In this document: in pieces, positions 1,087-31,401 of the stretch
How the letters are laid out: the number at the start of each line of letters is the position of its first letter
Numbering within the stretch: position 1 is the stretch's first letter
DNA from: a virus
Taxonomy: Duplodnaviria; Caudoviricetes
IMG/VR virus record: IMGVR_UViG_3300005805_000279
Coordinates: 1-32,384 of that record
Strand: one strand, 5' to 3'
DNA: 32,384 bases
Notes under the pieces: generated by a model
Told to the model about the DNA's origin: nothing
The model's database searches: none
Seen by the model: the letters and a program-made list of their open reading frames with translations, nothing else
Position numbers and translations under genes: made by a program

Positions 1087-1596
1087 TTAGACCACCTTCT
1101 TGTAGGTTTTGTTGTTTACAATCCCGCTGATTGTTATGCGGCTTACATTTAAATCTTCTGCTAACTCCATGATGCCTACGCCACCAGCCGACACCTTACG
1201 GATGTAGCGCACAAGGCTGTCTGGTAGGGGTTCTGCACGGGCTTTTCTTTCCTTGCCGCTTGCTTTAAAATCTGCTGCGTTGGCGGCGTAATCACCAATT
1301 TTTAAATGTGCAGGATTATAGCATGGAGGATTATTACATTTGTGTTGGACTTGCTCACGGGGGCTGAGATCTATTTGGTGAAACCACTCATAGAAAATTC
1401 TGTGGGTTTGACCTTTCTTTTGTAGAGCAGTTATTTTAGTGTGTCCGCACTCATTACCAACTGTGCCACGGAATTCCCAACAGCCACTCTCAGGATTGAT
1501 TGTTGTTTTCTGGATTAATCTGCTAACAAAAGACCTTAGTAGTTCATGTTCTGGACTTACATTTAGGGAGACACTTACATTTTTTACTTTACCCAT
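1087..1596 (-). CDS. HNH (His-Cys, HNH_3-like) endonuclease with C-terminal HTH
   Basis: GCWEFRG...THRIFYEW...VQHKCNNPPCYNPAHL...N, then IMELAEDLNVSRITISGIVNNKTY HTH. Start moved from 1773 to ATG 1596, which follows a GGAGG RBS. Confidence 0.85.
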   Translation of the reverse strand: MGKVKNVSVSLNVSPEHELLRSFVSRLIQKTTINPESGCWEFRGTVGNECGHTKITALQKKGQTHRIFYEWFHQIDLSPREQVQHKCNNPPCYNPAHLKIGDYAANAADFKASGKERKARAEPLPDSLVRYIRKVSAGGVGIMELAEDLNVSRITISGIVNNKTYKKVV

Positions 1597-2011: not shown

Positions 2012-2112
2012 ATCCAACCAGCAGATGACCGCTGATTAGAGAAAATAAAAAGGCTGTTCTTCTACCACCATAGAAGTGAGAGTAGTGGTGGCTACTCTCA
2101 CAGCCTTTATTT
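2012..2112 (-). ncRNA. Structured element: three-way junction with complementary loops, plus an adjacent G-U-containing hairpin
   Basis: P1 2049-2056/2101-2108; P2 cttcta-CCACCA-tagaag 2059-2076; P3 tgagagtag-TGGTGG-ctactctca 2077-2100; hairpin 2013-2040 pairs fully only on the minus strand using G-U pairs. Confidence 0.55.
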
Positions 2113-2362
2113 GCCTTGCCTTACACTTGCTGTGTCGTTCCTCAGATTTAGAAAGCCACTATGTGGACTTATTTCCTCGTCACCAGTAATCGTGTTTCCC
2201 TTTACCCGACATTGCTGCCTGTAATTACAAACCCCGATTGAGATGCTTCTTACAATCTCAGACACAAACCCTATTCTACACTAACATTATTAATTAGTTC
2301 ACTCTTTTTTTTATTCCAAGAAAAAAATAAATCTTTTTCATTTTCTCAGACATAATTAGTTT

Positions 2363-2563
2363 GTGTATCGGATTATCTTAAAAAAAGATTTTAGTAAGTT
2401 TTATGTTCGCCATGTAAAAGAAAAAAGTGAGATGGTGATTGCCTATTGTATTCGTGATGCGCTTGGTGATTGGGTTGCTACAAACATCATCAGCGAGACA
2501 AACAATCTACACAAATTGCTATCCTATGTCAAGCGTTGTGAAGAACTTAATAAAAATGACTAA
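2363..2563 (+). CDS. Possible small hypothetical protein (66 aa)
   Basis: GTG-start ORF with protein-like composition in otherwise empty space; no clear RBS. Confidence 0.35.
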   Translation: MYRIILKKDFSKFYVRHVKEKSEMVIAYCIRDALGDWVATNIISETNNLHKLLSYVKRCEELNKND

Positions 2564-2600
2564 ACATTTCCTTTTACCTGTGGTAGTATCTAATTATAAA

Positions 2601-2688
2601 AAAGGACGGAAACCTGCTAAGGCAGTTCGCCATAATCTGCCGTTCTCCCTGTCCTTTCTGCCCCGCCACCACGGGGCAGTTTTATTTT
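2601..2688 (+). promoter_or_regulatory. Structured leader/attenuator upstream of the HTH-MTase operon
   Basis: aaaggacgg...ctgtccttt stem enclosing ctgc-taag-gcag, then terminator-like ctgccccg-CCACCA-cggggcag (2658-2679) with a ttttatttt tail; preceded by CTAATTA at 2590-2596 and followed by RBS aaggag. Confidence 0.55.
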
Positions 2689-2707
2689 AACCATAAGGAG
2701 CAAGACA

Positions 2708-2905
2708 ATGTGCAAAGGAATTTACAACATGCCCCGCAATTACAAACTAACACCAGAACAAGTTTTAGAAATCAAGATGGATGATCGTCGTCCTTATAGG
2801 TTAATTGCTGTTGACTATGGTGTTTCTATTGCTACTGTTTGGAGCATTATCAATGGAAAGAAATGGAAACACATGGGAGAAAATAGAAATGGAACAAACA
2901 ATTAA
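2708..2905 (+). CDS. Stand-alone HTH DNA-binding protein (HNH C-terminal HTH type)
   Basis: KLTPEQVLEIK...YRLIAVDYGVSIATVWSIINGKKWKH; strong RBS ataaggag; overlaps the MTase start. Confidence 0.75.
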   Translation: MCKGIYNMPRNYKLTPEQVLEIKMDDRRPYRLIAVDYGVSIATVWSIINGKKWKHMGENRNGTNN

Positions 2906-4151
2906 TCTACATAATGCCGACTGTTGGGAAACATTAAAAACTTTACCAGATGATAGTGTTCACACTATTATCACAGATCCACCCTACGACATTGGCTTTA
3001 TGGGTAAAGATTGGGATAAAAACAGCCTTATCACTAATGTTGATTTCTGGAAAGAGTGCCTACGAGTTCTAAAGAGCGGTGGTTATTTGCTTTCTTTTGG
3101 TCATAGTCGCACCAGCCATAAGATGGCTACTGCTATTGAGAACGCTGGCTTCCAGATCCGTGACACGATTATGTGGATCTACGGCAGTGGTTTCCCTAAG
3201 TCACATAATGTTGGTGCTAAAGTTGATGGTTGGGATGGTTGGGGCACAGCACTAAAACCAGCACATGAACCAATCGTAATGGCTCGTAAACCATTAGAGG
3301 GCACTGTTGCTGATAATGTTCTTAAGCATGAGGTAGGTGCTCTAAACATTGATGCTACACGCATTGGTAATGAAGTTCTACCAGCCATTAGCACTAAAAC
3401 AGAAACAACCGACATTGGTTGGGAAAAGGCTGGCTACACAACGGCTGAAAGAACTGGTCGTTGGGCATCAAATGTTATGTTTAATCATGCTGAAAATTGT
3501 GAACTTGTTGGTGAGAAAGAAGACATAAGACAAGGTGGAGAAAGAACAAAAACTTTTGGTAGTGAAGAAGAACCAGTATCTGGCGGTGAAGGAACTGGCG
3601 GCACAATGAAAGAAATAACAAAAATCCCTGTTTGGAAATGTGCTGATGGTTGTCCTGTAAAAGCGTTAGATGAACAAGCACCAAACAAAGGCAACCTATT
3701 CAAGAAAAAAAGAAATAAAGGCACAAGCGGCGGTAGTGGTGATAGTTGGACTAATGGCGGCAAGGCGGCTGGCGAGGACAATGGTTTCTATGACGCACCA
3801 AGTGGAGCAAGCAAGTTTTTTTATTGTTCCAAGGTAGGCAAGAAGGAACGCAATGCTGGTTTAGATGGAAAACCAGAAACCACAACTGATGATGGAAGAG
3901 AAAAGTCAATAGACAATCCATTTCAAAGAGGTCAAACACTACGAAAGAATAATCATCCAACCGTAAAACCAATTGCTGTAATGGAGTGGTTGATTAAACT
4001 TGTTAGCCGTGAAGGGCAAACTGTTCTTGATCCATTTATGGGAAGCGGCACAACTGGAATAGCAGCAAAGCGTTTAGGTCGCAACTTTATTGGCTGTGAG
4101 CGTGAAAAAGATTTTTATGAAATAGCAAGCGCAAGGATTGAGCACGGCTAA
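2889..4151 (+). CDS. DNA N6-adenine/N4-cytosine methyltransferase, beta class (orphan)
   Basis: Catalytic IITDPPY near the N-terminus; HPTVKP and SAM-binding VLDPFMGSGTTG near the C-terminus (beta order). Likely start is ATG 2889 (MEQTINLHNAD). Confidence 0.93.
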   Translation: MEQTINLHNADCWETLKTLPDDSVHTIITDPPYDIGFMGKDWDKNSLITNVDFWKECLRVLKSGGYLLSFGHSRTSHKMATAIENAGFQIRDTIMWIYGSGFPKSHNVGAKVDGWDGWGTALKPAHEPIVMARKPLEGTVADNVLKHEVGALNIDATRIGNEVLPAISTKTETTDIGWEKAGYTTAERTGRWASNVMFNHAENCELVGEKEDIRQGGERTKTFGSEEEPVSGGEGTGGTMKEITKIPVWKCADGCPVKALDEQAPNKGNLFKKKRNKGTSGGSGDSWTNGGKAAGEDNGFYDAPSGASKFFYCSKVGKKERNAGLDGKPETTTDDGREKSIDNPFQRGQTLRKNNHPTVKPIAVMEWLIKLVSREGQTVLDPFMGSGTTGIAAKRLGRNFIGCEREKDFYEIASARIEHG

Positions 4152-25044: not shown

Positions 25045-25111
25045 TTACTTATCCTCACTACAATAAGTAGATGCCTCCGCAGAAAAAGAAATAAAATAAT
25101 GCGTTATTATT

Positions 25112-29773: not shown

Positions 29774-30230
29774 ATTTAGCCTCGCTTAGTCCTTGGATTA
29801 TTAGTGCTTCTTTTTTATAATAGAGCGTTGTGCGCCGTCCGCTTGCTAAGTGTAATAGGTTTATTGCTAAGGCTTTATAACTATCAAAGTTTAACACGCC
29901 GCTTAGGCTGCCGTCGCGCTCATAACTACCCTGAAACAAGAAAACATTTTCTTTACCGTTATGGGTGAGTGGTGATAAAGCGCAGGCGTTGCCGTGAGGT
30001 TGTGCGTCACTACCAGACCGACACCATTTACGATAGTGGTGTGGAGACATTTTTACGAGTGTCCCTGCTGGTAGTTTATCCTCTAACAAGTTGCCTACGA
30101 AATAGGCGGCGTGGAGCCTGCCTGTGTAGTGTAAACCGTGTGTTGCGGCTATGCTCTTTATTGCCCTATCTATGTCGTCTTGTAGTGCTTGATTACTTGT
30201 AAAAAACTTTATCCAACCGTTGTGCGCCAT
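29772..30230 (-). CDS. Hypothetical early protein (152 aa)
   Basis: Start at ATG 30230 (MAHNGW) after RBS aggagaa and a stem-loop. Confidence 0.7.
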   Translation of the reverse strand: MAHNGWIKFFTSNQALQDDIDRAIKSIAATHGLHYTGRLHAAYFVGNLLEDKLPAGTLVKMSPHHYRKWCRSGSDAQPHGNACALSPLTHNGKENVFLFQGSYERDGSLSGVLNFDSYKALAINLLHLASGRRTTLYYKKEALIIQGLSEAK

Positions 30231-30232
30231 CT

Positions 30233-30320
30233 TGTTCTCCTGCGGGCTGCTAAACCCGTTCATCAACTTACAAGAACAGTTTACTACAGTTTTTTACTTT
30301 TGTAAAGCACTTTCTTTTAC
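30233..30320 (-). repeat. Promoter + stem-loop + RBS repeat, copy 1 (TTTACA-17-TAAACT at 30278-30306)
   Basis: Highly similar to 30950-31035. Confidence 0.8.
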
Positions 30321-30374
30321 GGATGAGTAAGATTTTTTTCTGCGTCTATCGCGGCACTCTTCTCCATCCTAAGC

Positions 30375-30403
30375 ATAGTAGCACGGTGCTGTCTGCGAGT
30401 CAA
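30375..30403 (-). promoter_or_regulatory. Sigma70-type promoter TTGACT-17-TACTAT
   Basis: 17-bp spacing; sits in the same position relative to the 3' hairpin as the 29699 promoter. Confidence 0.6.
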
Positions 30404-30450
30404 GCGTGAAGGGGTTTCAGCCGTGACGGCTTACTCCCCCCACTTCGCTT
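30402..30450 (-). repeat. 3' hairpin repeat, copy 2 (loop-E-like internal loop)
   Basis: AAGCG AAGUG GGGG GAGUA AGCCG-UCA-CGGCU GAAA CCCC UUCA CGCUU. Confidence 0.65.
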
Positions 30451-30452
30451 AT

Positions 30453-30944
30453 TTACGCAACCTTTTCCCAATAATGATGTTGTCCTTCTTCCCAACGAAC
30501 CGTACCGCCTGTCAGTTTACCATTTACATGAACAAGGCGGTCAGGCGCTTCCCACTTACTCCAGTTGCTACAGCCAATAAATTTTTTAAATCTTTCTGGA
30601 TTGGGGTGTTCTTCCTTCCACCATTGGTCATCCTCATCCCACTCTTTTCTATCATAGAGGGAGATGCGAGGTTCTGGATCTGGTGTCCAGTCCATGTCTT
30701 GTGCGGGGATGAGTAGTCGTCTCTCCCCATCATTTTCTAAACACTGGAGTAGGGAATAATTTCTTTTGCTGTAGTAGCCATAATCGGCAGGGTTGAAGCC
30801 GTGACCTTTTATTACTTTAGAACTCAATTTGCCTTCAGCCAACACCAGCCAGTTCTTTTCACAAATGGTGTTCATTACTACAAACTGTTCTTTTTTTTCT
30901 TTTACTGTTTGTTTCCAGATGTCGCCAACTTTTATTTTTACCAT
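30453..30944 (-). CDS. Hypothetical early protein (163 aa, Trp-rich)
   Basis: RBS aaggagaa; starts IKVGDIWK (KOW/SH3-like start). Confidence 0.7.
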   Translation of the reverse strand: MVKIKVGDIWKQTVKEKKEQFVVMNTICEKNWLVLAEGKLSSKVIKGHGFNPADYGYYSKRNYSLLQCLENDGERRLLIPAQDMDWTPDPEPRISLYDRKEWDEDDQWWKEEHPNPERFKKFIGCSNWSKWEAPDRLVHVNGKLTGGTVRWEEGQHHYWEKVA

Positions 30945-30949
30945 CGTGC

Positions 30950-31035
30950 GTTCTCCTTGGGGCTGCTAATCCCCTCATCAACTTACAAAGACAGTTTACT
31001 ACACTTTTTTACTCTTGTAAAGGACTTTCTTTTAC
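30950..31035 (-). repeat. Promoter + stem-loop + RBS repeat, copy 2 (TTTACA-17-TAAACT at 30993-31021)
   Basis: Highly similar to 30233-30320. Confidence 0.8.
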
Positions 31036-31087
31036 TTCCTCCCTGTTGTTGCTCCAGTAGGCTGTTTACCTCACGAGCAGTGGTTCA

Positions 31088-31212
31088 ATGGTAGCATGCT
31101 TTTTTTTCTTTGTAAAGACAACCCCCCCCCTATGTTGTAGGGGTGCCCCTTGCGTTCTACGCGCATAGACACCCCCATCTTACATTGTAGGGGGGTTTTT
31201 TTTCTTTGTAAA
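31088..31212 (-). promoter_or_regulatory. Two further tandem sigma70-type promoters (TTTACA-17-TACCAT 31088-31116; TTTACA-17-TACAAT 31184-31212)
   Basis: Both share CTTTACAAAGAAAAAAAA and exact 17-bp spacers. Confidence 0.65.
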
Positions 31213-31231
31213 GGGGTTTTTTTACTTTTAC

Positions 31232-31273
31232 CTATGACAGGATTGTCATAGTAGGTGTGACATCCATGTCATA
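31232..31273. promoter_or_regulatory. Tandem palindromic operators TGACA-N4-TGTCA
   Basis: ctatgaca-ggat-tgtcatag (31232-31251) and tgtgaca-tcca-tgtcata (31256-31273), centres 23 bp apart. Confidence 0.6.
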
Positions 31274-31287
31274 GGGATAGGCGTGCG

Positions 31288-31303
31288 TTGGCACACTTCT
31301 TGC
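31288..31303 (+). promoter_or_regulatory. Sigma54 (RpoN) -24/-12 site
   Basis: TTGGCACACTTCTTGC matches YTGGCAC-N5-TTGC with GG-N10-GC spacing. Confidence 0.55.
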
Positions 31304-31372
31304 GGGATGGTAAAAGTGAACGCTGTTCACTATTTTTTTTTACTTTTACACTATTTTTTCCTAACAAAACGC

Positions 31373-31401
31373 TTTACAAGAGTAAAAAAATCGTGTAAAC
31401 T
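31373..31401 (+). promoter_or_regulatory. Rightward sigma70-type promoter TTTACA-17-TAAACT (inverted third copy of the early promoter)
   Basis: ctttacaagagtaaaaaaa...gtaaactg matches the minus-strand copy at 30993-31021. Confidence 0.6.

Follow-up and report, generated by a model that had tools for sequence, protein, structure and literature searches.

A dumbbell of complementary-loop hairpins in a freshwater phage genome suggests kissing-loop regulation of a new form

Gene setting of the dumbbell

The window, that is the whole stretch of 32,384 nucleotides analysed here, is a complete 32.3-kb phage genome with a 99-nt end overlap and direct terminal repeats, and its DNA was found in lake and freshwater sequencing runs. 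The ORF set comprises terminase, portal/connector, major head, adaptor and internal virion proteins, two HNH endonucleases and a DNA methyltransferase. A terL match (E 1e-39), a terS-like match (E 4e-4) and portal/head-tail connector matches are present, and the nearest named terminases are only 25-26% identical to the window terminase. No polymerase, primase, initiator, integrase or anti-repressor was found among the 31-32 ORFs scanned. At 32.3 kb the genome is podovirus-like with a recognisable replication or integration gene absent, and an initiator-like ORF is present in more distant relatives (L133).

The dumbbell occupies the intergenic gap where transcription diverges (Table 1). On the minus strand, about 450 nt separate it from the first clear downstream gene, which encodes an HNH endonuclease and is followed by a 196-aa unknown, a GNAT gene and, across the circular join, terS. 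On the plus strand, the gene at 2708-2905 is followed by the DNA methyltransferase gene (to 4151). The second HNH gene of the window (25044) carries a classic hairpin at 25046-25069 on the minus strand that buries its ribosome-binding site.

Table 1. Features in and around the dumbbell, in window coordinates
Feature	Positions	Strand	Description
HNH endonuclease gene	1087..1593	-	first clear gene downstream of the dumbbell; own GGAGGAG site
Neighbour hairpin	2013..2040	-	12 bp with three G-U pairs; predicted to be made only on read-through of the U-tract
U-tract	2036..2048	-	directly 3' of P1; no difference in 2000-2050 of the X3 variant contig
P1, 3' strand on minus-strand RNA	2049..2056	-	pairs with 2101-2108; would form the G+C core of an intrinsic terminator
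Hairpin B	2059..2076	-	6-bp stem (2059-2064/2071-2076); loop UGGUGG on the minus strand (2070-2065), CCACCA on the plus strand (2065-2070)
Hairpin A	2077..2100	-	9-10-bp stem (2077-2085/2092-2100); loop CCACCA on the minus strand (2091-2086), TGGTGG on the plus strand (2086-2091); would be transcribed first
P1, 5' strand on minus-strand RNA	2101..2108	-	evidence from sequence, folding and compensatory changes
CTAATTA	2291..2297	-	promoter-like motif directed at the dumbbell
Second CTAATTA	2353..2359	-	promoter-like motif directed at the dumbbell
CTAATTA	2590..2596	+	directed away from the dumbbell, ahead of the candidate partner RNA; absent from the earlier note
Candidate partner RNA/leader, about 90 nt	2597..2688	+	helix 2601-2609/2649-2657 abuts H3, then U-tract
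Third hairpin, H3	2658..2679	+	8 perfect pairs; loop CCACCA (2666-2671); terminator-like
65-aa gene after H3	2708..2905	+	resembles the C-terminal part of HNH endonucleases

Structure and natural variation of the loops

The earlier note on this DNA had described two perfect hairpins with complementary loops enclosed by a stem, P1, and this dumbbell is borne out by the sequence and by folding, which is stable on each strand (z = -5.85 on the plus and -5.32 on the minus strand, with 0 of 200 shuffles equally stable). The hairpins do abut with zero linker as it had stated, and the same holds between the 2077-2100 hairpin and P1; to be added to its description are two unpaired T residues (2057-2058) between P1 and the CCACCA-loop hairpin (2059-2076). 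No other adjacent pair of hairpins in the window has complementary loops, and adjacent perfect hairpins with 6-nt loop complementarity occurred in 0 of 60 simulated 32-kb windows. Further elements of the same description are also present: the U-rich tail after P1 on the minus strand, two leftward CTAATTA motifs (2297-2291 and 2359-2353) and the neighbour hairpin at 2013-2040, which depends on G-U pairs and is stable on the minus strand only (z -5.70 on the minus versus -1.57 on the plus strand). Branched stems, of which P1 is one, go unscored in a simple terminator scan.

About 600 nt from the dumbbell lies a third hairpin, H3, which spans 2658-2688 on the plus strand together with its U-tract and had been missed in the earlier note. 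It is a perfect 8-bp G+C hairpin (-15.6 kcal/mol). Of the 45 CCACCA sites in the window, only three, the two of the dumbbell and that of H3, lie within hairpin loops whose stems have three or more Watson-Crick pairs. The surrounding region (2590-2700, plus strand) folds with a z of -3.30 and contains the candidate partner RNA, whose complementarity to the dumbbell is confined to the 6-8-nt loop, longer duplexes being gappy and without a specific site.

To survey natural variation, contigs of eight runs (X labels) from five studies were aligned to the region. A contig of about 135-137 nt from X3, a different lake study, covers 2000-2136 and carries 15 substitutions and 4 indels, all of which (15/15 and 4/4) fall within 2051-2106 while every stem is kept. 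Its loops are exchanged jointly, from CCACCA/TGGTGG to CCGACA/TGTCGG (2067-68 together with 2088-89). Compensatory changes are found in P1 at 2054/2103, where in addition a G inserted behind 2051 meets the change at 2106, and in the stem of hairpin A at 2080-81/2096-97, with 2077 and 2100 both lost; in hairpin B, 2064/2071 is compensatory, and the changes at 2059-60 and the loss at 2074 re-register the stem to 5 bp. All these changes, and those of the loops, were hand-checked. The CCGACA/TGTCGG form also occurs as a loose end in X6, from a second study, and in X8 a loose end, of which 30 of 39 letters are visible, combines the variant loop with a third form of the stem. Both dumbbell loop forms co-occur within runs X3 and X8.

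The loop of H3 has the same two forms. Contigs of X4 and X6 carry a change at 2668-69 identical to that at 2067-68, which accounts for two of about 23-24 differences over 380-520 bases, and none of the differences listed is in the H3 stem. X1, perhaps the source sample, is of the window type at both dumbbell and H3, and X6 is variant at both. X4 has an unbroken contig with the window-type dumbbell and a separate contig with the variant H3 loop, a discordance that reflects a mixture, a recombinant, or an H3 that need not match; no contig spanning dumbbell and H3 was found among the runs surveyed. Because of the compensatory changes in the dumbbell and the look-alike leader family described below, we conclude that loop complementarity is selected, and the paired loop changes among co-existing close strains, together with the distant third site, argue for selection in the present day. 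The dumbbell is a real structure under selection.

We favour the minus strand for the dumbbell RNA because of the G-U hairpin, the U-tract left unchanged in the X3 variant, and the order of a long hairpin A followed by a short hairpin B, as in the leader family; on the plus side, the U-run after P1 is broken in the X8 stem form. A minus-strand RNA structure with selected loop complementarity is supported by the compensatory changes and the look-alike leaders. In minus-strand order, the loop of hairpin A folds before loop B is transcribed, and the computed energies of the loop duplex (-8.4 kcal/mol) and of hairpin B (-5.7 kcal/mol) are similar in size, so a transient A-B pseudoknot is possible before hairpin B closes. 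With both stems formed, tip-to-tip pairing of A and B inside one molecule looks sterically poor, given what is generally known of junction geometry and the zero-nucleotide junctions. Pairing in trans, which had been considered likelier than pairing within the molecule, is probably indeed so, since the third loop in H3 shows the same two-base change.

The CTAATTA motif is present 7 times in the 2,781 bases of non-coding DNA, where 0.77 copies are expected, and 8 copies against 6.0 expected in the whole window amount to no enrichment. It is absent from several relatives (L120, L128, L129). In the window and at L121, L125 and L127, several structural genes have the motif upstream on the coding strand, and because of this placement we read it as a putative promoter motif. 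Elsewhere in the window (29800-31400), there are 6 copies of repeated TTTACA/TGTAAA-type motifs, some 9 times the number expected of non-coding DNA, along with two near-identical intergenic blocks at about 30240-30320 and 30960-31030; by their look, these motifs and blocks resemble early promoters.

A 52-codon GTG frame runs from 2265 to 2107 on the minus strand, its stop codon at the edge of P1. Within it, 48 bases are replaced in frame by 96 in an X3 contig and X8 has a 1-base insertion at 2130; the exact sequence of this 52-aa ORF was absent from the protein collection searched.

A phage leader family with the same loop code

The exact dumbbell pattern had 0 matches in viral contigs, a metagenome pattern scan returned 7 loci with neither the fold nor a model match, blastn against annotated phages gave short chance matches only, and a GTDB scan with a terminase alignment found 1 distant locus. 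A looser pattern with the GTAG/CTAC closure of the window was rejected, none of the 119 loci it returned from 44 of 64 parts truly matching the two-hairpin form. Relatives identified by terL or GNAT showed no DNA similarity, and no model match in 37 loci or in G001, G002 and G010. The element is lineage-restricted, since related phages with a 54-60% identical terminase and the same packaging genes are without it. The suggested Rfam comparison yielded 0 matches at gathering score in the window and none relevant at E<=5 in 1700-2900. The int-alpA family (RF02996) had 0 matches at E<=10 in the genome and none near the element in 28 loci of the family pattern scans. Pairing of the UGGUGG loop with a tRNA 3'-CCA was dropped as a candidate, as the variant loop would need a non-CCA end.

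Look-alikes with other loop letters are widespread. A first loose scan for variant loops gave 120 loci from 9 of 64 parts with one real look-alike, seen twice, before a GIY-YIG-like gene, and 41 loci came from a tighter scan. In the decisive scan, any letter was allowed at the two middle positions of each loop; this returned 49 loci, 43 of them unique. Where stem A has at least 5 pairs, the loops are exactly complementary in 22 of 26 loci, with 8 different pairs, as against 0 of 17 weaker-stem controls. A start codon follows loop B by 4-14 nt in 20/26 hairpin-bearing loci versus 0/17 with weak stems. Loop B overlaps the ribosome-binding site, members having GGAG-type sites; the loop-to-loop gap is 17-25 nt in all 21 unique members, and a U-tract is found in 0/21. 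The stems covary in an alignment that was preselected for complementary loops, whose loop figure is therefore no test. Both loop forms of the window occur in the family (CCGACA in 9/22, CCACCA in 2/22).

The downstream proteins (n=17, near-duplicates and start-less loci left out) comprise 7 of replication-initiator and 7 of endonuclease families, 1 major head protein and 2 with no match. In seven unrelated loci (L353, L360, L365, L386, L388, L389 and L390, at about 880-960) the leader lies over the ribosome-binding site of an O-like/DnaD-like initiator. Rfam holds no family for the leader elements (28 pattern-scan loci), and no description of the dumbbell or of the leaders was found in the largely open-access literature searched. 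We conclude that the CCnnCA/UGnnGG leaders form a widespread, uncatalogued phage family. Among 41 unique pattern matches, 6 from unrelated phages (L312, L320, L328, L329, L330, L334) have CTAATTA or TTAATTA some 20-25 nt upstream of loop A, and the motif may be a late promoter shared across phages.

On its minus strand (2100-2059), the window shares with this family a long hairpin A with loop CCnnCA, then a short hairpin B with an exactly complementary loop; as the search patterns were taken from the window loops, this agreement is partly circular for loop identity, though not for stem lengths. The window differs from the family in the loop gap of 15 nt with zero linker, in the closing P1 with its U-tract, in the third loop on the other strand, and in what follows loop B, where no AUG, GUG or UUG occurs within 4-14 nt; neither a Shine-Dalgarno sequence nor a start codon was found after hairpin B on the minus strand. 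A covariance model of 22 family members has the dumbbell as its best match in the window, on the minus strand, at 16.4 bits (E 8e-5), compared with 51-61 bits for training members and 12-20 bits for pattern-bearing non-members. The window copy uses the kissing code of the family but falls outside its membership. The A/B module looks borrowed from the leader family, its start site gone and the module itself shortened and caged. A second start-less member is possibly the intergenic A/B pair at L341:1476-1563 (minus strand), which lacks a start codon and whose hairpin B is strong, with 9 bp.

A three-loop layout as in the window is seen in the unrelated provirus L322/G005, where a solo 16-bp hairpin with the module's own A loop and a U-tract lies 1.18 kb from the A/B module. 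In L322 this solo CCGACA-loop hairpin stands before a scaffold-like gene and the A/B module before the major head gene (2690-2743 and 1479-1561, minus strand). Such solo own-loop hairpins occur in 1/24 family loci versus 6/360 control loops or, counted by genome, in 1/7 (the one already seen) versus 1/105 controls. The three-loop layout is not general in the leader family.

A candidate kissing-loop attenuator and its alternatives

Three hairpins, P1 and U-tracts are present, the stems show compensatory changes, and one two-base loop change is shared by three sites. From these observations we infer kissing-loop regulation of a new form, and we tentatively prefer a reading, with somewhat less than an even chance of being right, in which the dumbbell forms the 3' portion of a leader RNA predicted on the minus strand and works as a kissing-loop transcription attenuator or terminator set by an RNA of about 90 nt. 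The leader, putatively started at CTAATTA, would end in P1 and the U-tract. The plus-strand RNA would offer a second loop A; this and the loop A of the leader would compete for loop B and so set whether P1 closes ahead of its U-tract; closure of P1 would stop transcription ahead of the HNH-GNAT-terminase genes, including that of the 196-aa protein. The two loop forms could then be strain-specific keys, as in heteroimmunity. The minus-strand signals, the leader family and the three-loop layout of L322/G005 also speak for this reading; against it count the X4 discordance, the loop-only match between the two RNAs, the rarity of solo own-loop hairpins in the family, the distance of about 450 nt to the first clear downstream gene, the lack of the element in related phages, and the absence of CTAATTA from several relatives and of its enrichment over the window. 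That a six-base A-B code by which many phages gate replication initiators and homing endonucleases has been rebuilt here into a two-RNA system without a protein repressor, whose strain keys would define RNA-only immunity groups among co-existing lake phages, is possible but doubtful. If the pairing is true, the phage would offer a compact kissing-loop system with natural alleles, its specificity set by two bases.

In the antisense attenuators of pT181 and pIP501, loop contacts start the pairing. These systems, which are named in PMC5415839, resemble the proposal, in which a small RNA would decide whether a terminator forms in a leader. They are unlike it in that their RNAs lie opposite the target and are fully complementary, whereas the window partner is 600 nt away and matches in the loop only. 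The C4 RNAs of P1/P7 and the CI RNA of P4 act through short matches to two sites. Like the proposed partner RNA they are trans-acting phage RNAs, with heteroimmunity set by 'minor nucleotide differences' (PMC6906374); they differ in fold, and the window has no corresponding Rfam match, anti-repressor or integrase. The homing endonuclease hairpins of T-even phages (PMC2988022) likewise tie RNA structure to nuclease genes and late promoters, although there a single hairpin covers a ribosome-binding site with no loop-loop pair, while the dumbbell covers no start site. A source on kissing topology (PMC7337929) is not decisive for the dumbbell.

Rather unlikely, in our estimate, is that the same two RNAs act in the reverse direction, the terminated minus-strand RNA diffusing so that its loop B binds the loop of H3 and tunes the HTH-methyltransferase genes at the level of read-through or translation, loop A self-pairing the RNA until needed. 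The 2708 gene has a ribosome-binding site whose GG follows H3 by 21 nt, within the 17-25 nt spacing of the leader family, and the hexamer at that site is not complementary to the H3 loop, so that the cis partner is missing; furthermore, the genes from 2708 on, the methyltransferase gene among them, are reached only by read-through of the H3 U-tract. Against this direction, the 8-bp G+C stem of H3 would hardly be opened by a 6-bp kiss, and the X4 discordance applies equally.

An identical change at three loops would also arise without RNA-RNA contact if the CCACCA hairpins (2065 and 2666 on the plus strand, 2091 on the minus strand) were sites for a protein, of the phage or of its host, that tells the loop alleles apart, which would leave the stems free to vary as they do. 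We consider this quite unlikely, since the second hexamer in the leader family is an exact complement over 8 pairs that overlaps the ribosome-binding site on the same strand, which points to base pairing, and since the ORFs scanned include no candidate RNA-binding protein.

A packaging RNA of the phi29 kind goes with a phi29-type motor in place of a large and small terminase. A structural RNA of the pRNA type, forming dimers or rings through intermolecular A-B kisses, had been raised in the earlier note and is not borne out: Rfam gives no match, terL/terS and portal/connector genes are present, relatives with the same packaging genes are without the element, and a homo-oligomer leaves the third loop in H3 unexplained. 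We hold this reading to be improbable, even with its attractions. The dumbbell does share with phi29 pRNA a three-way junction with two complementary loops, as described in PMC4201828, and six-pair CC/GG-rich kisses can be very stable (PMC4872101); the loop gap of 15 nt is also shorter than that of any of the 21 leader-family members. The arms are, however, much shorter than those of phi29 pRNA, and a third covarying loop lies in another predicted transcript. Oligomers may nevertheless form within the attenuator explanation.

The other suggestion made earlier, a DNA cruciform or priming signal at an origin, fares no better and seems very unlikely, as does a ColE1-like RNA primer. The absence of a polymerase, primase or initiator from this complete genome is in keeping with it, as are the Watson-Crick pairing of the dumbbell on both strands, which lets it fold as DNA (-18 kcal/mol), and the 7 of 17 family leaders that front initiators. 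Yet the G-U-dependent neighbour hairpin and the strand-specific, one-sided U-tract point to RNA, the look-alikes are mRNA leaders, and the skew changes near 2300-3000, just where gene direction switches. Barely credible is a relic of a ribosome-site leader that lost its gene and serves now as a terminator only, as the family-like A/B order without a start codon and the HNH gene and HNH remnant flanking the region might suggest, since the paired loop changes in co-existing strains and the third site need present-day selection.

Control of initiator dosage at the RNA level is known mainly from plasmids. The uncatalogued leaders before O-like/DnaD-like initiators and before nucleases (7/17 each) would extend RNA-level control of initiator dosage to many uncultured phages. 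At the syntenic spot in a related phage (L128:2447-2508, G002), two hairpins with the loops ATTGCC and GGCAATA, the second beside a gene's ribosome-binding site, make up another candidate kissing pair, with a fold z of only -1.67. Finally, in two relatives, at L128:3170-3310 (z -4.29) and L127:183-262, short sRNA-like units of a hairpin plus terminator directly precede the first of the small genes in the GNAT-terminase operon.
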